Shown in pieces: positions 4,331 to 64,000 of a stretch of DNA of 64,000 nt. Below the pieces are notes generated by a model. It was not told the origin of the DNA. It did no database searches and saw nothing but the letters and a program-made list of their open reading frames with translations. The stretch's first letter is position 1, and the number at the start of each line of letters is the position of its first letter. Position numbers and translations under genes: made by a program. The stretch is from a virus, in the IMG/VR virus record IMGVR_UViG_3300005825_000057, positions 1-64,000 of that record; one strand, 5' to 3'.

Positions 4331-5929
4331 TTACCACATATTTTCCATGTGTTGTTTTCTTGTAACACGTCTCACCTTAGATGAATCGTTGCTGAAACAT
4401 TCATAAATGATTTCAGTGCCATCTTCATCTTGAGTGGCCAAAAATACGTCGTTGCCCCAAATAAATCTAAGACCAGTAAGTACATCCTTTACATACGGAT
4501 CATAAAGCTCACGGCCATCTACGCTATGCTGCAAGAGGAAATAACCTTTGCCACGATAATTGGGTTCAACCAACTTAATGTCGGGCAAACCACCATTTAC
4601 ATGGCGTCTCATCAACAAGCCTTTAATTGTCTTGTAATCATGAGATTCAATTCTGGTTTCGCCATTTCCAAATTTCTTCCATTCAAAATATTCCTGTTCT
4701 CGACAGAAATCTTCTGTGAAATATTCATGGATTAACGTCAGGTCGTCATAATATTTTCTTACTTCAAATATCTTTTCTTTTCCTAAACCAGCTTTGGTAT
4801 CCCAATTTTCACGCTTCCGATAATCTCGACATTCTTCCCATTCTGTGCCAAATCGACCTTTATCCCAACGATCACGAATATCCATTAACAGATAAAAGCC
4901 CAGCTTATATGGGTTTGTCGAATACTTCCCGCCCAACACGCCCATTTTATGAGCAGCATATTCAATAATACCACAATCATGGGTTTTCTGGCCAAGTCCA
5001 ACATAACCCTGTTCTGCCATAATTACATGGTCGGTCAACGAGGCCCATCCTTCGTTCAACACCTTAGTTTGGCGTTGTGGGAAGAAATATAAAGACTCAT
5101 CATAAATCATGGAAAGAATATCTTGTTGCCACGGTTTCAGCGGAGCATTATCACGCAAAAACCCAAGAATATCTTTAGTCGGCTCAGCAAACAAATTCAA
5201 TTCATCAGCAAGTTCACGATTTTTAGCTCGTTCGTTTTCAGTCTTCTTGAAATCTCCGGTATTGATATAAGGTTCCATATAAAGACGTTCATTGGAAACC
5301 TTCAACCGACGAGGATGACGATACGTTCTAGCATCTGAAATAATTGGATTTTTAATTACTTTGTGATGCCATGCTTTTGCACCATCAATCAAAGTATCAA
5401 TTCTAAGCAAATAATCCATGAATTCTGTGACACGTTCTTTACCCCAACGATTCATATATTTACGAATACGGGAACCGTGGTTCGCCATATTGTTCAACAT
5501 ATTCGTGTCTGTTGCAGAAAAATGAATATTATTCTTGAAGAAGTCATTGTGGCCGGTTGCATGAGCAATAACGGTCAAATGGTCAAGAAGTGTATTGGAA
5601 CTTAGAAGCCACTGATAACATGGATTGGTATTGATAACCATCTCATATATTTTGTGCATTCCATATTCATAACCACGTTGGAGTTCTTCGTATTCCATAC
5701 CGAAGGACCAATGTGGGTATCTAACAGGAAAGCCACCATAAGCGGCTATTTCTGAAATTTCGTCATATGTTAGTAATTGAACAACTGTAGGATAAAAGTC
5801 GAGTCCCCATTCTTTGCAAGCATGGAGAATGGTTTGTGCCAAATCCCTAAGCTCTTTAGGCAACTGTACTCCGGGGATAGTGTTATCCCCTAGTAAAATT
5901 GAAGACCCATGAAAAAATTTACTCGCCAT
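4331..5929 (-). CDS. spoVR: SpoVR/YcgB family protein
   Basis: AYGGFPVRYPHWSFG, IYEMVINTNP, AHATGHNDFFKNN, QTKVLNEGWAS, NPYKLG. Confidence 0.95.
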   Translation of the reverse strand: MASKFFHGSSILLGDNTIPGVQLPKELRDLAQTILHACKEWGLDFYPTVVQLLTYDEISEIAAYGGFPVRYPHWSFGMEYEELQRGYEYGMHKIYEMVINTNPCYQWLLSSNTLLDHLTVIAHATGHNDFFKNNIHFSATDTNMLNNMANHGSRIRKYMNRWGKERVTEFMDYLLRIDTLIDGAKAWHHKVIKNPIISDARTYRHPRRLKVSNERLYMEPYINTGDFKKTENERAKNRELADELNLFAEPTKDILGFLRDNAPLKPWQQDILSMIYDESLYFFPQRQTKVLNEGWASLTDHVIMAEQGYVGLGQKTHDCGIIEYAAHKMGVLGGKYSTNPYKLGFYLLMDIRDRWDKGRFGTEWEECRDYRKRENWDTKAGLGKEKIFEVRKYYDDLTLIHEYFTEDFCREQEYFEWKKFGNGETRIESHDYKTIKGLLMRRHVNGGLPDIKLVEPNYRGKGYFLLQHSVDGRELYDPYVKDVLTGLRFIWGNDVFLATQDEDGTEIIYECFSNDSSKVRRVTRKQHMENMW

Positions 5930-41431: not shown

Positions 41432-41649
41432 CCATTTTAATCTTCGTGATCTTAGAAAAACCTAAAGTTAAGTATATCTTCGAGAATGTATTTAAGCAAG
41501 TACAATTTGCCAATTTATTCTCTTCTCTACTATACTCTATTCTTCTCTATTATTTATCCATAGGTACTTCTCTATGATATGCGCACACCGAGTCGCCGGT
41601 TAAGTTATACTTATTTAAAAGAATAAATACTATAGAATAGATTTATTTC

Positions 41650-42020
41650 TTTTTGTTTTAGTAGAGGGAGAAAAACTTTCTACTAAAACACAAGCATAAC
41701 ATAACCCTAGTCCATAGATTTCTCTATGGAGAGTCAGTGTACCCAATAAAAAATGCAGCAACCAAACCCAAGACTAGATCGCTTTCTCGTCAAAAAGCGA
41801 ATGGCTTTTTTGTCTAATCTAGGCACACCTACACTGCTGAGCCGGATGATTCTCGTGGATCAATCCTGATACCTGTCAAGGCGCTCGGTTTTTTCACCCA
41901 AATTTCTTCAAAGGGGTACTCGTGAATACTTTTTGAATGGGAAGAAACGGTAACTAGCCGTTTATACCTTTCGGTAATTTAGAGCTTCCATCTCAGTTTA
42001 TTTTTAAGTAGAGTGACGAG
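41650..42020 (-). ncRNA. structured RNA or long 5' leader upstream of polA
   Basis: nested stems and two GAAA tetraloop hairpins on the minus strand, downstream of a TTGAAC-16-TATATT promoter. Confidence 0.5.
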
Positions 42021-55315: not shown

Positions 55316-56755
55316 TTAAAAGTCGAAGTTGTCTTTAATTATAACTTTGTGGCCTTGTGCTTTCAAGATTTTGATGCGCTTTTGGCTATGCTCTAAAAGG
55401 TAGGGATTTATATTGAATAAGAAATCATAGTAGTTAAGTTCTTCTTTATCATCGGCGGTTCTTAGACCACGACCCATTCTCTGAATGATTTGGTGATCTG
55501 CCTGACCACCAGCCGCATTGATAAGATTATGAATAAATACGTTAATGCCTGTGTTGAAAATCTGTTGCGTGGCAATTGCAATTATATTTTCTTTTGATTT
55601 CTGTAATGTTTGAATAACGCTTTTTCTTGTCTTTGAATCATCTTTACCTTGTACCCACAAAGACCCCGGCAATAAATTGTGTAAAGCATCACCGTGAGCA
55701 ATACGGTCCACTAAAATAAGGGTTCTACCGGATTGTTTTTTGGCTAGTTTTTTAACTATCTTGTGAAAGTGAAAACTTTCTGCGATGCCACGGGTGACCG
55801 CATCAATATAAATATCGTGTGGAATTGAAGGTTCATCAATTGGAAAGAAGGTACAATTAGATGAAGACAAGATTCCACGATCTTGAAGTTCTTTTGTTGT
55901 AAGAACGCCAGCTTCCGCAGATTTAATTTTCAATACTGGTCCAAAGAATCCTTTTACATAATGTTTTTGTACTTTATCTTTCTCTCCAAATTTGAATGGC
56001 GTTGCACTAAGGGCTACTCGTATATCGCAACCTTTGAGTCTTCGATATACAGCTTTAGGCAAAGCACTCATCATATCGTGAATTTCGTCCACGATTAACA
56101 CTTTGATTTTTGGCAATACTTTTTCCATTTTGGAAATAGATTGTACACTGGCAACTGTAATCATATTTGGTTTAACATTGCCGCCCCATAAGGTTCCTAC
56201 ATTTGGAATGCCCCATTTTGTAATTTCAGAATAATTTTGTTCAGCTAAACCAACTCTATTTTGCAGAACCAATGTGGGTGTATTGGGAGGCAGAGCTTTA
56301 AGAACGCCAAGCATCATAAAGGTTTTGCCAGCACTTGTCGGAGCGAATATAACCCCTCTACGATATTTAAGAACTTGATTTACCAAGTCTACTTGATAAT
56401 CGTGTAGCTTGATTGGATCAAAACCTTCGGGAAGGCATGTGTTAAAAAAGTCATCTTGTATTTCAGAAAGCAAGAGAGGGGTTTTGTTTCTTTCATCTAA
56501 GACTTCATATGGAATATTGAAGTGCTTTAATGCATGGACAACTTCTGGAAGCAGGCCAGTTAGAAACTTTCCATTTTCTTGTTTGAAAAATTCTGTATAG
56601 CCATCCCACATGCCCATTTTATATCGCCGGTTATGAAAGTAGTTTCTTTCACGGAAGCGAAGGCAATCCCAAATTTTATGTTTAATCGTAGTCTGATCCG
56701 TCATCAAATACGAATAATCATTGTTGATTTTGAGTATTGCTTTGTTGTTGGTCAT
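55316..56755 (-). CDS. uvsW: UvsW-like SF2 helicase
   Basis: WDG, DYQ, PTSAGKT, DEIH, SATP, TGIN, QRMGRGLR, YYDF, HS..R. Confidence 0.9.
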   Translation of the reverse strand: MTNNKAILKINNDYSYLMTDQTTIKHKIWDCLRFRERNYFHNRRYKMGMWDGYTEFFKQENGKFLTGLLPEVVHALKHFNIPYEVLDERNKTPLLLSEIQDDFFNTCLPEGFDPIKLHDYQVDLVNQVLKYRRGVIFAPTSAGKTFMMLGVLKALPPNTPTLVLQNRVGLAEQNYSEITKWGIPNVGTLWGGNVKPNMITVASVQSISKMEKVLPKIKVLIVDEIHDMMSALPKAVYRRLKGCDIRVALSATPFKFGEKDKVQKHYVKGFFGPVLKIKSAEAGVLTTKELQDRGILSSSNCTFFPIDEPSIPHDIYIDAVTRGIAESFHFHKIVKKLAKKQSGRTLILVDRIAHGDALHNLLPGSLWVQGKDDSKTRKSVIQTLQKSKENIIAIATQQIFNTGINVFIHNLINAAGGQADHQIIQRMGRGLRTADDKEELNYYDFLFNINPYLLEHSQKRIKILKAQGHKVIIKDNFDF

Positions 56756-56887
56756 TTGTTATCCTTTTCTGTCGCTTGTTTTTTTCAAGCGAATTACGAA
56801 CTATCTTACCAGATACCGAGGGCTTCCGTCTAGGCTTTTTTCTTTTTCCACAACTAGAACATGCCATAATTCCTCCTATATTTATGT

Positions 56888-57202
56888 ATGGAACCAGAGT
56901 TACAGATAGATAGTCAAGTTATTGTGCCAAAAGCACGAAAATTAAAGGCGATTTGGTCATATGAAGCTCAGCAAGATTTGCGCCAATTTCACAATATTGA
57001 TGCGGAGAAAGAGTTATCAAAAATATTAGCAGAAGAAATAAGTAAGGAAATTGACCAAGAAATTCTCAATGATCTACGAAGTGCATCTGAAAAAGGCCAA
57101 GAAACAGAAAGAAAGATAATAAGCGGTAAAATTAAGAAGAAGAAAATTAAAGTAAGTTGGAGTTCTGTATTTGACGATTTTGAACCAACTAAAAAGGATT
57201 AA
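56888..57202 (+). CDS. mini-protein containing the conserved gp23 capsid segment
   Basis: KARKLKAIWSYEAQQDLRQFHNIDAEKELSKILAEEISKEIDQEIL matches the T4-type gp23 core motif. Confidence 0.8.
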   Translation: MEPELQIDSQVIVPKARKLKAIWSYEAQQDLRQFHNIDAEKELSKILAEEISKEIDQEILNDLRSASEKGQETERKIISGKIKKKKIKVSWSSVFDDFEPTKKD

Positions 57203-57204
57203 AT

Positions 57205-57582
57205 ATGGCTATTCTTAGAGGTTTTCCTCCATCAAACTCGATTTTTCCAACCACTTATATTCCAGATATAGTTGAAACCTCAATAAAAATTGGCAATTTA
57301 GAAGTAGAAGAAAAATTTCGTACTGAAGATGGTTCAGAATACTTGAAATTGAAAAATGCTTCTTGGGAATGTAGAGCAATTTGTTATAAAAGCAAAACAA
57401 ACGAAGCAGGAGCTATTTATGGTTTTGATATTAACAGAGAAGTTATTTGGCTTAGAAAGAGTTACAAGCATGTGCCTTTGACAGACGTAAGTTGTTGCCA
57501 AAAATGCGGTGAAAAATTGATTATTGATGAATTTTCAAACCAATATGGAGATTGGTGCCCAAATCCATCTTGTTCAAACTAA
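57205..57582 (+). CDS. hypothetical protein with C-terminal zinc ribbon
   Basis: AAGGA SD; CQKC...CPNPSC. Confidence 0.6.
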   Translation: MAILRGFPPSNSIFPTTYIPDIVETSIKIGNLEVEEKFRTEDGSEYLKLKNASWECRAICYKSKTNEAGAIYGFDINREVIWLRKSYKHVPLTDVSCCQKCGEKLIIDEFSNQYGDWCPNPSCSN

Positions 57583-57914
57583 CAATTTCTTAGTGCGGCC
57601 AAGGCAGCAACTTTTAAGTCTTCAAAATATATTGTTGCCAAATCCACAGCTTCTTGGTGCGTACAAAGTTCTTCTTCGTTGTAATAAGCGTTAAATGTAT
57701 CTTGGTAGAGAGGAATAACTTGTCCGCCAGTTCTGTAACCCTGTTTTAGAATTACTTTTTTGATTGCGATTTTTTCTAAAACTCCACGAACTGCTTTGTA
57801 CCGTAAAAATACGATGGAATTTTCACCGTATTTATAGGTGTAATAATTCGATTGTTTTATTCGGGCACAACCGAAAATATTGATGCCGCCTGAGCCTGTG
57901 TATTGCATTGCCAT
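57579..57914 (-). CDS. hypothetical protein
   Basis: start set at MAMQY. Confidence 0.55.
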   Translation of the reverse strand: MAMQYTGSGGINIFGCARIKQSNYYTYKYGENSIVFLRYKAVRGVLEKIAIKKVILKQGYRTGGQVIPLYQDTFNAYYNEEELCTHQEAVDLATIYFEDLKVAALAALRNC

Positions 57915-57952
57915 GATTTTATTTAGTTTAGCTGATCTCAAACTTTTACTTC

Positions 57953-57981
57953 TTTACAAGTCTTTTGATTTGTGCTAGAAT
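57953..57981 (+). promoter_or_regulatory. sigma70-type promoter
   Basis: TTTACA-17-TAGAAT with extended TG. Confidence 0.65.
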
Positions 57982-58019
57982 ATTGCGAAATCCACTTCTC
58001 TTTTCTCAGGAGGCTTTCC

Positions 58020-58844
58020 TTGAATACCTATCTCACCCTAGACAATGTGACTGTTTCGTTTCGTGATGAAAGCGGCACGCTTTGTGCCTTGCGAAAGGCC
58101 AAACATTATAAAAGAGAACGGCCCCGGTCATGGCAAGATGATGACTTTTATCTTGTCGTCCATACTGATGGCGAAATTTATGCAAATGTCGAAGGCAATG
58201 GAGCGGTTCTTCTGAATGAAGAATCGGTTGGCGATCTGCCAGTAAAAGATTTGCCTTTACATAAGGCTACAAATAAATTCTTGGTGACTTCAAAAGGCAA
58301 AGTTTATACTTTTACCGTTCACTTGGTTCTTTGTAAAGAAAACACAAGTGTGTCGCCTGAAATTAGATCGAAGGGAATATCCTACAATCAAGAAGATGAT
58401 TGTTGGTTTTTTGATAATGTCGGATTTTTCTACAGTTTGTTTTGGTTATTCTCTGATGCATATCAAGATGACTATCAAGACGATTTCTCTATTGAAGGTA
58501 TTCGAGAGGATCAATTTGAACAGCCCCCTTTTGAGGAAGAGGGGCAGGTCAATGTTCCTGTCGAACATGATTTGAGTTTGGCGGGAGAATCAGAAAAATC
58601 TGACGAATCCAGCGAACCTTCTGTTACGGAAAGCGTCCAACATAGTGAACCTGAGCCGACTCGCAGCGAGCCGGAACCAACGCATCATTCGGAGCCAGAG
58701 CCAACCCATTACAGCCCATCAAGTTACGACGATTCACATCGTAGCTACGATCCCGGTCCCAGCCATGATTACGATCATGGGTCGAGTTACGATAGCGGAT
58801 CAAGTTACGATAGCGGTGGGGATTCTGGTGGAAGTTTTGATTGA
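58020..58844 (+). CDS. hypothetical protein with acidic low-complexity tail
   Basis: AGGAGG SD before TTG; SEPEPT x3 and SYD(S/P)G repeats. Confidence 0.65.
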   Translation: MNTYLTLDNVTVSFRDESGTLCALRKAKHYKRERPRSWQDDDFYLVVHTDGEIYANVEGNGAVLLNEESVGDLPVKDLPLHKATNKFLVTSKGKVYTFTVHLVLCKENTSVSPEIRSKGISYNQEDDCWFFDNVGFFYSLFWLFSDAYQDDYQDDFSIEGIREDQFEQPPFEEEGQVNVPVEHDLSLAGESEKSDESSEPSVTESVQHSEPEPTRSEPEPTHHSEPEPTHYSPSSYDDSHRSYDPGPSHDYDHGSSYDSGSSYDSGGDSGGSFD

Positions 58845-58915
58845 TCGTTGCAAGAAATTCGTCTTTCATTGACGAACGGATGTGATACGAGATTGTGGTT
58901 GACCGTATTGGTTGT

Positions 58916-58947
58916 GTTCCCGGCGAAAAAAAAGATTCGCCGGGAAC
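58916..58947. repeat. perfect 12-bp inverted repeat abutting a -35 box
   Basis: GTTCCCGGCGAA-N8-TTCGCCGGGAAC. Confidence 0.8.
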
Positions 58948-59035
58948 TTTACAACGCCGAAAATTGTGGTACAATAACGGCAGACGAGAAAAAAATTCTG
59001 AATCTCTTGAAAAAACGAATTAGTGACACTACTAT
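58948..59035 (+). promoter_or_regulatory. tandem sigma70-type promoters of the tRNA array
   Basis: TTTACA-16-TACAAT with extended TG (58948-58975) and TTGAAA-17-TACTAT (59007-59035). Confidence 0.65.
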
Positions 59036-59063
59036 AGTGTTACACAAGACAAAAGGTGCAATC

Positions 59064-59144
59064 GTGAACAAGTTCTCTTATCAGCTTAGCAGTTTATCAT
59101 CCTCGTTGCTATTTAGCAACGACAGGGGAGGCTGTGTCCGCTGA
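59064..59144 (+). CDS. putative attenuator leader peptide MNKFSYQLSSLSSSLLFSNDRGGCVR
   Basis: AAGGTG SD, GTG start, all six Ser codons, stop lies inside the antiterminator domain. Confidence 0.7.
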   Translation: MNKFSYQLSSLSSSLLFSNDRGGCVR

Positions 59145-59216
59145 GTAAGAGGACATAACGGGTTTAACCCCGGTAGCCCCCCAAGATGTTTGGGACTAGG
59201 CTACCGGGGTTTTTTT
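59125..59216 (+). terminator. attenuator: antiterminator/terminator switch
   Basis: 13-bp stem 59166-59178 with 59199-59211 plus T7; alternative pairing 59125-59134 with 59174-59182. Confidence 0.75.
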
Positions 59217-59227
59217 GTGGGATAATT

Positions 59228-59527
59228 ATGAGTTGGGCCACACATTACATCGAAAAACTTCGCAAGGGTGAAACGGTTAGTTTCAGGCCAAGGGGAGGTT
59301 CGATGAAAGGCAAAATTGAATCCGGGCAATTATGCACGGTGGAACCTGTAAAGGGTGAACTTGAAGTTGGTGATATAGTTTTATGTAAAGTTGGCGGAAG
59401 TCAATATTTACATTTGATTAAGGCAATCCAAGGTCAAAGGTATCAAATCGGAAATAACCGAGGCGGTATCAATGGGTGGATTGGGATGAATTCGATCTTT
59501 GGCAAATTGGTAGAAATCAATGAGTAA
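59228..59527 (+). CDS. small S24/S26 peptidase-like domain protein
   Basis: G.SM...I..G....V.P....VGDIV....H pattern. Confidence 0.6.
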   Translation: MSWATHYIEKLRKGETVSFRPRGGSMKGKIESGQLCTVEPVKGELEVGDIVLCKVGGSQYLHLIKAIQGQRYQIGNNRGGINGWIGMNSIFGKLVEINE

Positions 59528-59915
59528 TACGGACGAAAGTGCCAGTATGACTAGCGATTGGGCTGTGGGTGCATTCAAACCCAAGTCTATTCCAAGTCAA
59601 TCAGAGGAATTTTTAACTCAATTGGCCAAAGATATAGCGATGAACTTGGTCTTTACATCAGACCATGTTAATCGTGAACAGTGGGACAACCTTCTCGGTA
59701 TGATATTCATGCCGGTGGTTTTGGGAGCCTTTTCGGATTATACCGAGGAAGCCCGCAAAGACATTGGAATGATTTATGAATATTGGGATAAAGCTGGACC
59801 ACGATCAATCAACGGGTATCCAATTTTCTTTTCTTTCGCAATTGTGAATGTAAAAGACAGATTGTTTGTCTGGGAGAAAGTAGAAAAAATTCGGAAGGTT
59901 CTGGAAGCCGTATAA
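59520..59915 (+). CDS. hypothetical protein
   Basis: YEY..KAGPRSINGYP.F conserved-looking motif. Confidence 0.65.
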   Translation: MSNTDESASMTSDWAVGAFKPKSIPSQSEEFLTQLAKDIAMNLVFTSDHVNREQWDNLLGMIFMPVVLGAFSDYTEEARKDIGMIYEYWDKAGPRSINGYPIFFSFAIVNVKDRLFVWEKVEKIRKVLEAV

Positions 59916-59916
59916 C

Positions 59917-59999
59917 GGGAGTGCTAATGCTGTGGGAAGCTACGCTGGCTGTAACCCAGCCGCCTTAATGGATAAGGGGTTCGATTCCTCACACTCCCA
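59917..59999 (+). tRNA. tRNA-Tyr(GTA), atypical D-arm
   Basis: GGGAGTG/CACTCCC acceptor, GCTGG-CTGTAAC-CCAGC, GGTTCGATTCC. Confidence 0.8.
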
Positions 60000-60012
60000 C
60001 TTGAGAAAAGAA

Positions 60013-60231
60013 ATGAAAGCATACTTGCTGGATAAACGTGGAATAAGCAAAGTATATCTTGTCTTCGGAGAAGATTGTGTCTCTGCTGCCAAGGTACTAG
60101 CTGAAAAGCTAGGTTGTGATTACGAAGATTTTTCAGTAGGTGGTTCATGGGATGTTGACCCGAATGAGCCTATAAATTTAAGTCAACTATGGCCTTATTT
60201 TACAAATGCCCCCGGAAGGCATAGTACATAA
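60013..60231 (+). CDS. hypothetical protein within the tRNA array
   Basis: fills the space between two tRNAs. Confidence 0.5.
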   Translation: MKAYLLDKRGISKVYLVFGEDCVSAAKVLAEKLGCDYEDFSVGGSWDVDPNEPINLSQLWPYFTNAPGRHST

Positions 60232-60239
60232 GGAAAAAT

Positions 60240-60321
60240 GGCCTCGTGGTGGAATTGGCAGACACGCCAGACTCAAAATCTGGTGCCGCAAGGCGTGTGG
60301 GTTCGAGTCCCACCGAGGCCA
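60240..60321 (+). tRNA. tRNA-Leu(CAA), canonical
   Basis: full cloverleaf with variable arm. Confidence 0.95.
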
Positions 60322-60322
60322 C

Positions 60323-60413
60323 TGGTAGATGGTGGAAGTTAGACACGGCCCCGTGTAGGGGTTGGTAGGCCGATCACCTACCGTGCAGGTATCGAATCCT
60401 GCTCTACCAACCA
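60323..60413 (+). ncRNA. non-canonical tRNA-like RNA with encoded CCA
   Basis: TGGTAGA/TCTACCA-A-CCA, Leu-type D-arm, aberrant anticodon loop, 7-bp variable stem, 8-nt T-loop. Confidence 0.7.
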
Positions 60414-60415
60414 CG

Positions 60416-60488
60416 GGACAGGGAGCTAGTGTGGTCATAGCACTGGACTGAAAATCCAGCAAAATCAGTTCGATTCTGATCCTGTCCA
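60416..60488 (+). tRNA. tRNA-Phe(GAA)
   Basis: GGACAGG/CCTGTCC, CTGGA-CTGAAAA-TCCAG. Confidence 0.88.
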
Positions 60489-60505
60489 CTGTGAAAGGAA
60501 AATTT

Positions 60506-60670
60506 ATGGCTAGATCATTGTGTAAAGACCCAAGTATATCTCAAAAAAACGATGCGAGTTGCATCGGAAATAAACGGGGTATGGCTCGCAGAGCTAAGAG
60601 AAATAGCAACAAAAGGGATCGACAAAAACTAGACAAAGATTTGAAAGAAAGAATTGCACTTGTTCGGTAA
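60506..60670 (+). CDS. small Arg/Lys-rich protein (54 aa)
   Basis: AAGGA SD; MARSLCKD...RRAKRNSNKRDRQ; below the ORF-track cutoff. Confidence 0.55.
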   Translation: MARSLCKDPSISQKNDASCIGNKRGMARRAKRNSNKRDRQKLDKDLKERIALVR

Positions 60671-60704
60671 TCCGTTGCATATATACTTCTTAAAAGGAGT
60701 CTAT

Positions 60705-61112
60705 ATGTTTCAAGATACGAACAACACTTTGAATCAAGGCGGCGTTGGGTTAGCGAGGGCGATATATGAGTATCAAAGATTGGGGTACACAGTTTGTTTA
60801 CCTTTAGTTGATGCTCAAGATTACGACCTTGTAATTGAAAAGGATAAAAAGTGGGAGTCTGTTCAATGCAGAACAACTTCTACCAAAGCAAGAAGTAGAA
60901 AAGGCGGATTTATTGATGGTAGGTATGAAGTTAGTTTGAGGACCATAAAAACTAATACAAAAGAGACTACCATTAAAAAGAAAGGTAATTTTGATTTGCT
61001 TTTTGTGATGTGTGATAATGGCGATTGTTATTCGGTGCCGAATAAAGAATTGCCTGAATCTGGCACCACGGTCGGCGGTCCAAAATACGAAAAATACAAA
61101 ATTGGAAGCTAG
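60705..61112 (+). CDS. free-standing PD-(D/E)XK homing endonuclease (tRNA/group I intron-associated type)
   Basis: AAGGAG SD; G..G...A, GY.V..P, YDLVIE, VQCRT, FDLL. Confidence 0.8.
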   Translation: MFQDTNNTLNQGGVGLARAIYEYQRLGYTVCLPLVDAQDYDLVIEKDKKWESVQCRTTSTKARSRKGGFIDGRYEVSLRTIKTNTKETTIKKKGNFDLLFVMCDNGDCYSVPNKELPESGTTVGGPKYEKYKIGS

Positions 61113-61192
61113 GCAACTGCTGGTTTGTTGCACCGCTTTGCTAAAGCGGCCCGGTCTAAACCCCGGCGAGGGTTCGATTCCCTTGGCTTCCG
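61104..61192 (+). tRNA. tRNA-Ser(GCT), 8/4-compatible
   Basis: GGAAGCTA/TGGCTTCC-G, CCGCT-TTGCTAA-AGCGG, long variable arm. Confidence 0.88.
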
Positions 61193-61193
61193 C

Positions 61194-61274
61194 TTGCTCA
61201 AATGCCCGAAGGGATTACATTCTTGAAAAGTGTGTACCGAAAGGTAAACTATCTCTTTATTATTCGTTGAGCAA
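61194..61274 (+). ncRNA. structured ncRNA copy A (possible Y-RNA-like)
   Basis: 8-bp terminal stem; shares AAATGC, GGAnTACATT, CTCTT and ATTCGTT with 62259-62370. Confidence 0.55.
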
Positions 61275-61278
61275 ATAT

Positions 61279-61350
61279 GGATCAGTAGCTTAGATGGCAA
61301 AGCGTCTGTCTGAACAACAGAAGAGTGGAATTCGAGCGTCCATTGATCCA
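61279..61350 (+). tRNA. degenerate tRNA-Phe(GAA)-like
   Basis: acceptor, D and anticodon arms present; C37 and a distorted T-arm. Confidence 0.55.
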
Positions 61351-61355
61351 CTTAT

Positions 61356-61434
61356 GGCCTTGTACGCAAACTTATGGCAAAGCGGCTTCTTTCAAAAAGA
61401 AGTGATTTTGTGGGTTCGACTCCCACCAAGGCTA
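61356..61434 (+). tRNA. tRNA-Leu(CAA) lacking long variable arm
   Basis: CTTCT-TTCAAAA-AGAAG, variable region TGATTTT, G1-U72. Confidence 0.8.
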
Positions 61435-61523
61435 CTATGATGAAATTTTGTGGTGTATGTGGATTTCAATTACAAGGAAAAGGTGTTAAAAGATATAAGA
61501 CCTGTCCTGAATGCGAAGAAAAT

Positions 61524-61617
61524 GCCCGTGTACGCAAATTGGCACAGCGGACTACCTCAGAAGTAGTTGTCTCCCCTTCAACAAGGGATACTGTCGGTTC
61601 GAGTCCGACCACGGGTA
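61524..61617 (+). tRNA. tRNA-Leu(CAG) with extra-long variable arm
   Basis: ACTAC-CTCAGAA-GTAGT, about 25-nt variable region, G1-U72. Confidence 0.8.
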
Positions 61618-61620
61618 CTT

Positions 61621-61785
61621 ATGGGAAAGAAAAATAAAAGATATTGTATCCGGGCTAATCCGCCAAAAGGTTGGCAGATATGGGATCGGAAATTGGCAAG
61701 ATGGTGGGGAAATCCTACAAAGGAATTTCCTTATACAGTCTTGCAGAAATTGAATGAAGGAAAGCAGAGTGAATTGAAGTATTAA
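61621..61785 (+). CDS. small hypothetical protein
   Basis: fills the gap between tRNAs exactly. Confidence 0.45.
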   Translation: MGKKNKRYCIRANPPKGWQIWDRKLARWWGNPTKEFPYTVLQKLNEGKQSELKY

Positions 61786-61787
61786 AT

Positions 61788-61867
61788 GGCCGGGTACGCA
61801 AACCTAATGGCAAAGCGGCGAAGCTCAGAACTTCGTGATTTTATGGGTTCGACTCCCATCCCGGCTA
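61788..61867 (+). tRNA. tRNA-Leu(CAG) lacking long variable arm
   Basis: CGAAG-CTCAGAA-CTTCG, TGATTTT. Confidence 0.8.
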
Positions 61868-61868
61868 C

Positions 61869-61985
61869 TGTTTAATTTGGTGTAACGGTAGCATTCCCCC
61901 GGAAGGGGCAAGAACGGTTCGACTCCGTATATTAGTGTAACGGCAGCACAGAAATGAGGATCGGTTCGACTCCGAAAATTAAACA
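61869..61985 (+). ncRNA. double D-arm/T-arm tRNA-mimic RNA
   Basis: 10-bp closing stem around two GTGTAACGGYAGCAY...CGGTTCGACTCCG modules with no normal anticodon arm. Confidence 0.7.
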
Positions 61986-61991
61986 ATTTAT

Positions 61992-62067
61992 GGCCTTATA
62001 CGCAAAATGGCAAAGCGGCTTGTTTTAAAAATAAGTGATTTTGTGGGTTCGATTCCCACTGAGGCTA
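61992..62067 (+). tRNA. tRNA-Leu(TAA) lacking long variable arm
   Basis: CTTGT-TTTAAAA-ATAAG, TGATTTT. Confidence 0.78.
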
Positions 62068-62080
62068 CTATCCACCCAAT

Positions 62081-62162
62081 GGCCCCGTGGTGGAACCGGC
62101 AGACACGCTGGACTTAAAATCCGGTGCCTTCGGGCGTGAGGGTTCAAATCCCTCCGGGGCCA
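62081..62162 (+). tRNA. tRNA-Leu(TAA), canonical
   Basis: full cloverleaf with variable arm. Confidence 0.95.
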
Positions 62163-62168
62163 CTTTTT

Positions 62169-62256
62169 GGAAGCTAGGTCAGATGTTGGTTCGCTGCACC
62201 TGTCTTGAAAACAGGACCGGGTAAAACCGGCGAGGGTTCGATTCCCTTGGCTTCCG
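62169..62256 (+). tRNA. tRNA-Ser(TGA), 8/4-compatible
   Basis: CCTGT-CTTGAAA-ACAGG; same body as Ser(GCT). Confidence 0.88.
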
Positions 62257-62258
62257 CT

Positions 62259-62370
62259 TGCTACAAATGCAAATTAGGAGTACATTGACAAAAGTAAAGT
62301 CGTCGGGCAAAACCCGATATATGTGGGTATCGAATCCCACTGTAACCTCTTGGTTAAATTCGTTGTAGCA
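62259..62370 (+). ncRNA. structured ncRNA copy B with tRNA-like T-arm (possible Y-RNA/YrlA-like)
   Basis: TGCTACAA/TTGTAGCA stem; internal GTGGG-TATCGAAT-CCCAC arm. Confidence 0.6.
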
Positions 62371-62376
62371 TTTTTT

Positions 62377-62458
62377 GGAAGATAAGCGAATGGTTAGCGG
62401 TCACACTGGAAATGTGATGCCCCGCAAGGGGTTGCGGGTTCGAGTCCCGTGTCTTCCG
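62377..62458 (+). tRNA. tRNA-Ser(GGA), short D-arm
   Basis: TCACA-CTGGAAA-TGTGA, variable arm, G73. Confidence 0.85.
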
Positions 62459-62472
62459 CTGGGAGAAAATAA

Positions 62473-62700
62473 ATGGTCACTGTAAAAATTGTTGGTCCCG
62501 GTTTGGTTGTGAATAAACCGGCTGCGATAATTTACAAAGCATTGACTGAGGCTGGTTACAAAGTTGATCTTGAAGAATTTGCTGGACAACATCAGTATGT
62601 TCCAAAAGACGAATGGCCAGAGAAAGAATTAGTTGATACAGAACGCCAAAAGGGTATGGAAGTCAAAGTGGATGTTGATCCACTCCCTTGGGGCGGATAA
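62473..62700 (+). CDS. hypothetical protein within the tRNA array
   Basis: GGGAG SD; ends PWGG. Confidence 0.6.
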   Translation: MVTVKIVGPGLVVNKPAAIIYKALTEAGYKVDLEEFAGQHQYVPKDEWPEKELVDTERQKGMEVKVDVDPLPWGG

Positions 62701-62701
62701 T

Positions 62702-62790
62702 GGAGAGTAGGCAAATACTGGTTTGTTGCATCTGATTGGAAATCAGACCCGGTTTAAAACCCGGTGAGGGTTCGATTCCCTTGCTCTCCG
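62702..62790 (+). tRNA. tRNA-Ser(GGA), 8/4-compatible
   Basis: GGAGAGTA/TGCTCTCC-G, TCTGA-TTGGAAA-TCAGA. Confidence 0.88.
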
Positions 62791-62793
62791 CTC

Positions 62794-62906
62794 GCACAGA
62801 TGAAGGGCGTTCCCCTTAAATGAGAAATTGGCATCGAGGGCCAGTGAGCCGTAAGGCGAAGGGCCGGGGCTATGTGGGTTCGAGTCCCATCGCCTTTCAT
62901 CTGTGT
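62794..62906 (+). ncRNA. tRNA-like RNA with a 15-16-bp closing stem
   Basis: CACAGATGAAGGGCG/CGCCTTTCATCTGTG plus canonical T-arm GTGGGTTCGAGTCCCAT. Confidence 0.65.
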
Positions 62907-62926
62907 TTTTATAAGTAGGGAAGCTA

Positions 62927-63127
62927 ATGCACGCCAAAGTTTTTTATACTTTAGGGCAAAGAGATACGATTGCCGGTCTTTTTGCTATGATAAGATCAAA
63001 AGGAATAAATTCGACTTTGGCAGAACTTGCGGCTGAATATACTAAAGCATTTGATGAACCAAATCCCCATGTGGAATGGTGGATAAAACAAAATGAAAAG
63101 AAAGAAGATGTAGTTGAAAATGGATAG
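62927..63127 (+). CDS. hypothetical protein within the tRNA array
   Basis: AGGGA SD. Confidence 0.5.
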   Translation: MHAKVFYTLGQRDTIAGLFAMIRSKGINSTLAELAAEYTKAFDEPNPHVEWWIKQNEKKEDVVENG

Positions 63128-63204
63128 GTTGAGCAATTGGCTGGCTCGCCAGACTGTAAATCTGGTCCCTTCGGGGCATGTGGGTTCGAGTCCCACCCTA
63201 TCCA
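63122..63204 (+). tRNA. tRNA-Tyr(GTA)
   Basis: CCAGA-CTGTAAA-TCTGG, variable arm. Confidence 0.92.
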
Positions 63205-63213
63205 CTGGTTTTT

Positions 63214-63291
63214 GGCTGGGTACGCAAACTTCGGCAAAGCGGCCACTTCGAGAGAGTGGTGATTTTGTGGGTTCGACTCCCATCCCAGCTA
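63214..63291 (+). tRNA. tRNA-Leu(GAG) lacking long variable arm, C33
   Basis: CCACT-TCGAGAG-AGTGG, TGATTTT. Confidence 0.72.
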
Positions 63292-63293
63292 CT

Positions 63294-63521
63294 ATGCATA
63301 AGAATTATTACAACCACGATGAATCTGAGAAACATTATCGAAGACATATATCAAACCTTGCGTACCGATATAAATTTAAGGTAATTTACGAAGACGAAAG
63401 AATTTTGAAGAAAGAGAATGGCGAAACAACAGTAATTGTGGATATAACAGAAACACCCCGCAATACTTTATGTTGGAAGGCTTGGCTCAAACTTCAAAAT
63501 GAATACGAAAATGGATTCTGA
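63294..63521 (+). CDS. hypothetical protein
   Basis: starts immediately after the tRNA. Confidence 0.45.
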   Translation: MHKNYYNHDESEKHYRRHISNLAYRYKFKVIYEDERILKKENGETTVIVDITETPRNTLCWKAWLKLQNEYENGF

Positions 63522-63696
63522 AAAGATCGTGATTGATACACAAGAAAAACTTTTGGAACACTTTGGGAAACCAGAGAAAGATTTTTTTGGTATATCTGGT
63601 CTTTATATGGATTCATTAGAGAATGGACGAAGAATGCAATCGAGGATGGTGGATAACTATTTAAGATTGATATTTAAATTACAAAATGGAAGCTAG
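63511..63696 (+). CDS. hypothetical protein
   Basis: overlaps the previous stop and the next tRNA 5' end. Confidence 0.4.
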   Translation: MDSEKIVIDTQEKLLEHFGKPEKDFFGISGLYMDSLENGRRMQSRMVDNYLRLIFKLQNGS

Positions 63697-63774
63697 GCAG
63701 ATGTTGGCTTGCTGCACTTGTCTCGAAAACAAGACCGGGTAAAACCGGCGAGGGTTCAATTCCCTTGGCTTCCG
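63688..63774 (+). tRNA. tRNA-Ser(CGA), 8/4-compatible
   Basis: CTTGT-CTCGAAA-ACAAG; same body family. Confidence 0.88.
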
Positions 63775-64000
63775 CTGGGCACTAAAAGTGTCGTTCAAAA
63801 AAGTAAACTATTTCATGTAGAAATAAACTTGCTCCGACACAAAAACAAGAAAGGGCAATTAGAGGGTAGAAATTAAAGTGTAAAAATCCCCAACCCAAAA
63901 ATAAAAAAATCCATGCTATAATTTGTATTTTTCTCATACACTATTGTAGTATATAATGAAGAAAATGGGGTCGCACGGCGAATTAGTTTGGTAAGGCACA

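Follow-up and report, generated by a model that had tools for sequence, protein, structure and literature searches.

The leader and the tRNA operon behind it

Between positions 58948 and 59216 of the window (the whole 64-kb stretch of DNA that was analysed) lie two predicted promoters, a Shine-Dalgarno sequence (SD), a 26-codon uORF and an intrinsic terminator, and behind them follow two small protein genes and a long array of tRNA genes (Table 1). The parent IMG/VR virus record has 101,533 bases, of which the window takes up the first 64 kb, and its CheckV completeness is 21%, implying a genome of about 480 kb. A UvsW-type helicase and a gp23-like fragment in the record indicated a T4-like giant phage.

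Table 1. Coordinates of the leader elements, predicted RNA structures and downstream genes (positions in the window)
Feature	Position	Strand	Basis or remark
Promoter P1, TTTACA-16-TACAAT, TG before -10	58948-58975	+	Consensus scan, 10/12
Promoter P2, TTGAAA-17-TACTAT	59007-59035	+	Consensus scan, 9/12
Shine-Dalgarno AAGGTG, 5 nt before start codon	59053-59058	+	Read directly
Leader uORF, 26 codons, GTG start, TGA stop	59064-59144	+	Read directly
Region 1:2, long irregular hairpin enclosing run and stop codon	59072-59154	+	MFE folds
Regulatory codon run, 14/15 Phe/Ser/Tyr/Leu, 13 distinct	59073-59117	+	Counted by frame
Small 8-bp hairpin, CGTTGCTA/TAGCAACG, inside region 1:2	59104-59121	+	Read directly
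Antiterminator 2:3, G-rich strand 59125-59134 with terminator 5' strand 59174-59182	59125-59182	+	Constrained folds
Intrinsic terminator 3:4, T7	59166-59216	+	-31.1 kcal/mol fold
99-aa S24-like protein, first gene of gated operon	59228-59527	+	Weak, borderline Pfam Peptidase_S24 match
131-aa protein, second gene	59520-59915	+	No family; overlaps S24-like gene, ends 2 nt before tRNA-Tyr
tRNA array, typed genes Leu/Ser/Tyr/Phe only	59917-64000, on to 64131 beyond window	+	ARAGORN and Rfam

A blastn search of GenBank phages with region 58850-59950 in distant mode gave no match. Searches with exact and degenerate leader patterns retrieved only G001 from the viral contigs and none from the genome contigs, and the sole locus arising from a promoter-pattern search (L093) proved to be unrelated, having neither leader nor tRNA. 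The divergence of the tRNA-Tyr sequence between lineages was too great for exact-pattern probing. Six related copies were recovered via the neighbouring S24-like gene, from IMG/VR (G001, L094 and L095) and from metagenomes (L013, L014 and L016), with S24-like protein identities of 77-92% across them. Including the window, these made seven sequences of four lineages (window/G001/L013; L014; L016; L094/L095), all from uncultured giant phages. In addition, a few low-depth contig pieces identical to the phage were found in four estuary metatranscriptome runs (2018), which indicated that a near-identical phage was present in those samples; the pieces lie outside the leader.

The two promoters proposed in an earlier reading of this DNA, made from the letters alone (hereafter the sequence-only reading), both matched the consensus. 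P1, which we take to resemble a T4 early promoter, was nearly invariant in G001, L013 and L014 and absent from L016, L094 and L095. P2 was the only extended-motif match within the window, and its arrangement was found in 6 of the 7 sequences, the -35 element of L014 being CTGAAA. The SD and the 26 codons of the uORF were exactly as quoted in that reading, and the GTG start codon also stood, at 59064-59066, one base before the position it had implied (59065); the TGA stop codon occupies 59142-59144. The SD was unpaired in the MFE fold of the window, and AAGGTG, AAGGA or GGAG was found at similar spacing in the relatives. SD, start codon and uORF were kept together in 6 of the 7 sequences, with ATG as the start codon in L014 and L016. 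The seventh, L013, carried GAG at the position of the start codon and no alternative start near the SD, and may represent either a real super-attenuated variant or an error in a 1.5-kb metagenome contig.

No match to the promoter consensus was found between the T-run of the terminator and the S24-like gene, and promoter-like matches inside the array were at chance level, weak internal promoters being possible. Between 59917 and 64131 we counted 17 tRNA genes, 15 of which were typed as Leu, Ser, Tyr or Phe by ARAGORN; another (61356-61434) was found by Rfam only and types as Leu. The 17th element (60323-60413) is 91 nt long and was called 'Thr' by ARAGORN, with a non-canonical anticodon loop and without Rfam support. 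Apart from this unsupported 'Thr' element, the claim that the four amino acids of the leader are those of the downstream tRNAs held for all typed tRNAs. The anticodons of the array are CAA, TAA, CAG, GAG and TAG for Leu and GCT, TGA, GGA and CGA for Ser, plus those for Tyr and Phe. In all lineages the typable downstream tRNAs were likewise Leu, Ser, Tyr or Phe, and in a 223-kb record (G002) all 16 tRNA matches fell in this one array, the 14 typed by ARAGORN being all Leu, Ser, Tyr or Phe.

That the leader stands in front of the array, as the sequence-only reading had it, does not hold strictly for the window, where two ORFs intervene. It does hold for L016, L094 and L095, in which tRNA-Tyr directly follows the terminator, starting 5-10 nt after the T-run, so that this tRNA would be made only by read-through. 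The S24-like gene lies inside the array in L014, L016, L094 and L095.

RNA structures and codon run of the leader

Three regions of pairing in the leader RNA, 1:2, 2:3 and 3:4, were found to be mutually exclusive and of similar strength in every lineage (in silico constrained folds of all seven sequences). MFE folds of the leader gave z = -5.8 and -6.5. The 1:2 topology was common to all the relatives, with energies of -31 to -39 kcal/mol, and it contains the 8-bp hairpin that the sequence-only reading had noticed, present at 59104-59121; compensatory pairs were observed both in this small hairpin and in the basal stem of 1:2. The 13-bp terminator with T7 described there was confirmed as well: the 13 bp form its outer stem, the inner stem has 5 bp and the T7 run follows. 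In all seven sequences the terminator had an energy of -31 to -39 kcal/mol and ended in a T6-T7 run, and the outer stem was conserved through compensatory changes, T-A to C-G among them. RNAalifold analysis of the seven sequences showed double-sided changes in 7 of the 24 consensus pairs, which belong to the terminator and the small hairpin.

The antiterminator was assessed by per-sequence constrained folds, because MAFFT misaligns the variable inner part of the terminator. It is a three-way junction closed by the 2:3 helix, with two small hairpins inside. The competing helix put forward in the sequence-only reading was recovered in these folds: GGGG(A)GGCT (59125-59133) pairs with AGCCCCCC (59175-59182) over 8 bp with one bulged A. 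Antiterminator energies were -27 to -35 kcal/mol as compared with -18 to -23 kcal/mol when the upstream sequence was shuffled, and shuffles equalled the antiterminator in 0 to 2.7% of trials (P <= 0.03). The helix was kept despite changes in both strands across lineages. The window has its bulged A, L014 pairs GGCTAC with GTAGCC, L016 has a continuous helix of 11 bp, and in L094 an extra A in region 2 is matched by an extra pyrimidine in region 3. The two elements whose loss from homologs would have spoken against the sequence-only reading were both found there, the competing helix in 7 of 7 sequences with compensatory changes and the uORF, with its SD and start, in 6 of 7. The 1:2 hairpin, the antiterminator, the terminator and a P2-type promoter (in L014 with its variant -35) were common to all seven.

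Region 2 lies 8-17 nt upstream of the stop codon, and the final codon of the run ends 8 nt before region 2. Modelled footprints hid the G-rich strand when the ribosome stood at the stop codon and left it free when the ribosome was stalled in the run. When a footprint was masked at the run codons, the MFE structure of the nascent RNA was the antiterminator in 7 of 7 sequences. Masking at the stop codon covered region 2, and the full-length fold retained the terminator; in the stop-masked nascent folds of the window and of L094/L095, the terminator 5' strand paired with other upstream RNA, not with region 2. For the full-length RNA at equilibrium the terminator was always preferred, and antitermination would therefore have to be kinetic, as in trp.

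A recount by frame confirmed that 14 of the 15 codons at 59073-59117 are Phe, Ser, Tyr or Leu, with every one of the six Ser codons, four of the Leu codons and the two Phe codons represented, and that 24 of the 26 uORF codons are distinct, AGC and AAC occurring twice each. All 13 distinct codons of the run were matched by a cognate anticodon in the array. Between lineages the runs were permuted and divergent in sequence (FSYQLSSLSSSLLFS, LSSLSLSYLSSLFS and LSLSLSLSYSSLYLFS are examples) yet made almost entirely of Leu, Ser, Tyr and Phe (13/14, 14/14 and 16/16 in the relatives), the 14/14 being that of L016 (LSSLSLSYLSSLFS) and the 16/16 that of L094/L095 (LSLSLSLSYSSLYLFS), in the uORF frame only. 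Leader composition tracked array content in every lineage, a comparison that the sequence-only reading had suggested. Such a permutation of residues within one set of four amino acids fits selection on codon class, not on peptide or RNA sequence.

The changes seen in L014 were of the coding type: its start codon is ATG, 3 nt are deleted in frame and three substitutions are synonymous. Two of these substitutions replace G-C by A-U at one pair of the small hairpin and are thus compensatory. In L016 and L094/L095, the first half of the uORF differs both in nucleotides and in peptide. Among the close relatives, the leader was far better conserved than the flanking protein gene, with an invariant block of 47 nt as against about 70% identity over the whole 1.3-kb match, which is mostly the upstream protein gene.

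A count of 14 in 15 was reached at three loci of the 101.5-kb record when its six frames were scanned, so the run alone is not unique. The other two loci are T-rich and lack an SD or start. The setting of the leader run, with a promoter and an SD before it and a terminator behind it, is unusual. A second Leu/Ser/Tyr/Phe-rich frame (41506-41565), considered as a possible second leader, was rejected as an intergenic T/C-rich repeat without SD or start. This repeat belongs to a 560-nt intergenic region (41432-41992) that also contains several hairpins.

Codon diversity within the run was also greater than expected by chance. The probability of finding 13 of 14 run codons distinct was about 5e-4 under phage codon usage and 0.005 under uniform usage, and that of 14 distinct codons in the 16-codon run was about 3e-4; codons rare in the phage are used within the leader. 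The enrichment was specific for the frame, with 14 such codons in the uORF frame, against 7-9 when the two alternative frames were counted across the entire uORF. Since the run pairs with a purine-rich strand, pyrimidine-rich codons are favoured by the pairing itself. We therefore used a structure-preserving null, in which the run was randomised with every base pair still possible, and asked how often the observed count was reached in the absence of a stop codon. The mean of this null was about 9 Leu/Ser/Tyr/Phe codons, that is, about 60% of the run, and the P values of the observed counts were 6.5e-4 (window), 1.1e-3 (L014), 1.1e-3 (L016) and <5e-5 (L094). RNA structure accounts for part of the enrichment but not for all of it.

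Attenuation as the proposed control

All the sequence-level features of a leader-peptide attenuator were found together at this locus: a promoter with a uORF, matched codons, a terminator, exclusive folds and a suitably placed stop codon. Given the anatomy observed here, its conserved and covarying parts and the agreement of the leader codons with the tRNAs of the array, we consider it likely that the leader is a trp-type, multivalent, ribosome-mediated transcription attenuator gating the tRNA operon. The trp-type logic invoked in the sequence-only reading is thus supported by comparative evidence and by geometry. The gated unit, two small genes plus the tRNA array, is likely in its turn to be an early operon, and slow reading of Leu, Ser, Tyr and Phe codons by ribosomes is probably the condition under which the phage makes the corresponding tRNAs. 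From the sequence we infer translation of the uORF, kinetic coupling and a response to the supply of charged tRNAs.

Under this model, transcription would start from P1 or P2 and a ribosome would load on the 26-codon uORF. If Leu, Ser, Tyr and Phe codons were decoded fast, the ribosome would reach the stop codon and cover region 2, the 3:4 terminator would form and transcription would end at the T-run. The terminator would also form if the uORF were left untranslated, the 1:2 hairpin then holding region 2. A stall on any of about 15 consecutive Leu/Ser/Tyr/Phe codons would break 1:2 and set region 2 free, and free region 2 could pair with the terminator 5' strand before the 3' strand is made, allowing the polymerase to read into the S24-like gene and the tRNAs. 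The new tRNAs would then speed up decoding and close a negative feedback loop.

An attenuator of the same architecture would also be expected if the leader sensed general translation capacity (ribosome shortage, slow-down or inhibitors) and the run were merely a long slow stretch, and the inducible tRNA array of Anabaena does respond to general translational stress (PMC8421152, PMC10272220). A sensor of this kind, however, has no need for a run limited to the four amino acids of the array, nor for in-frame synonymous-codon diversity maintained across diverged lineages, and we regard it as unlikely.

The strong folding of the leader (the z values given above), its 47-nt block invariant among close relatives, the lack of a start codon in L013 and a structure-preserving null that already yields about 60% Leu/Ser/Tyr/Phe could also be accommodated by a structured small RNA of about 175 nt, running from P2 to the terminator, or by an RNA-only switch, with the frame being incidental to the pairing of a pyrimidine with a purine strand. 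This explanation seems rather improbable to us in view of the ORF, SD and start (ATG or GTG) retained in 6 of the 7 sequences, the in-frame indel and an enrichment that is frame-specific and exceeds the structure null. Moreover, tRNA-Tyr located 5-10 nt past the terminator in three relatives needs read-through, and no Rfam family was found over the leader, the sole match being the 3' part of RybB, on the terminator alone and below threshold (25.4 bits; gathering score, 40; E = 0.088). A small protein gene encoding a functional peptide of 23-27 aa, for which the conserved ORF with its SD, own promoter and own terminator might speak, is very improbable, as the residues are permuted within one set and the C-terminal part changes too, the opposite of peptide conservation, and codons rare in the phage are used.

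Within the attenuation model that we favour, a more specific role can be advanced only tentatively. Sampling 11-14 codons, the leader might act as a sensor of individual isoacceptors, such that loss of any one decoding capacity would bring about the full replacement set of tRNAs as an inducible counter-defence. Leu, Ser and Tyr tRNAs are the long-variable-arm (class II) tRNAs of bacteria, and the scope of such a sensor might be these class II tRNAs together with tRNA-Phe, lost for example through host defence nucleases, among which anticodon nucleases, the trigger proposed in the sequence-only reading, are plausible. If so, negative feedback would be built into the counter-defence.

Two explanations have been given for phage tRNA genes, namely that they supplement codon usage or that they replace tRNAs which host defences destroy. 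An attenuator based on reading speed at the array's own codons would give the phage a direct and self-limiting measure of its tRNA supply. The leaders of enterobacterial operons (thr, with Thr and Ile codons; ilvGMEDA, with Ile, Leu and Val codons; trpL, hisL, leuL and pheL) likewise combine a promoter with a short leader of regulatory codons, exclusive 1:2, 2:3 and 3:4 structures, an intrinsic terminator and a stop codon placed for masking of region 2, and the multivalent thr and ilvGMEDA leaders appear, by analogy, to be the nearest cellular relatives. Unlike these leaders, which gate biosynthetic enzymes and repeat one codon, the phage leader gates tRNA genes and two small ORFs and samples 11-14 synonymous codons of four amino acids; it also differs in being borne by a phage and in having a three-way junction as its antiterminator.

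By function, the nearest system is presumably the pheM leader of the E. coli pheST operon, which exerts attenuation control over phenylalanyl-tRNA synthetase. In pheM too, a leader peptide controls a component of decoding through the reading speed of its own codons, but the component is a synthetase and not tRNAs, a single amino acid is sensed and the system is cellular. T-box riboswitches are likewise transcription attenuators that report tRNA charging and control aminoacylation genes; they bind the uncharged tRNA directly and have no uORF, in contrast to the phage leader, and no T-box match was obtained in a cmscan of 56000-64000 (E <= 1).

The trn operon of Anabaena sp. PCC 7120, a long tRNA array induced by translational stress, is under promoter control through direct repeats bound by the repressor TrcR (PMC8421152, PMC10272220). 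As is proposed for the phage array, it is an accessory tRNA array that is off until translation is impaired, but attenuation, a leader or a terminator is not mentioned for it (PMC8421152, PMC10272220). A full-text literature search found no publication in which tRNA arrays are combined with leader-peptide attenuation. Here leader-peptide attenuation, a known mechanism, would have a new application in a phage tRNA operon whose leader samples several codons, and would be extended from amino-acid metabolism to tRNA genes. With a small construct it becomes testable why full Leu, Ser and Tyr sets together with tRNA-Phe occur in this clade and which tRNAs limit during infection, and the leader would provide a compact natural means of sensing codon-specific translation speed.

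Neighbouring genes and elements

Upstream of the leader, gene 57972-58844 encodes a low-complexity protein with Ser/Tyr/Asp/Gly repeats and of no family, whose position is conserved in G001 and L014; no relative of this 290-aa protein was found among the viral contigs. A conserved 10-bp hairpin (58916-58947), with compensatory changes in G001, comes next, and the regions matching this gene and hairpin lie at about 4560-4660 in L014 and 2250-2370 in L004. An element of about 60 nt, with no Rfam match and not found in the window, is common to L016 (4440-4580), L094 (3560-3625) and L095 (3560-3630), just upstream of the leader promoter. In L016 a tRNA-Met gene (CAT; 4584-4654) comes after this element, just upstream of the promoter and outside the gated unit. 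Further upstream in the window, the gp23-like fragment is a 104-aa ORF (56888-57202), distant from any structural gene cluster, whose match to the T4 major capsid protein gp23 (Pfam Gp23, E = 1e-19) is confined to an internal block of that protein.

Relatives of the S24-like protein at 65-80% identity number more than 6,000 and come from very diverse bacteria as well as from many giant phages. The gene neighbourhoods in bacteria revealed no common theme; in this phage clade, the gene is always inside the tRNA operon. Within the array, the tRNA-like element at 60323-60413, located between tRNA-Leu and tRNA-Phe, has a long variable arm and an encoded CCA, and its position is conserved in L016 (7299-7390); the ARAGORN label for it is 'Thr(tgt)' or '???'. 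The array also contains a 152-aa PD-(D/E)XK endonuclease ORF (60654-61112), which may be a homing endonuclease like those of T4-type tRNA regions. In G001 (L003 1002-2950), an IS607-type element interrupts the S24-like gene after about codon 27 and encodes a serine recombinase with a MerR-type HTH and a TnpB (OrfB_IS605).
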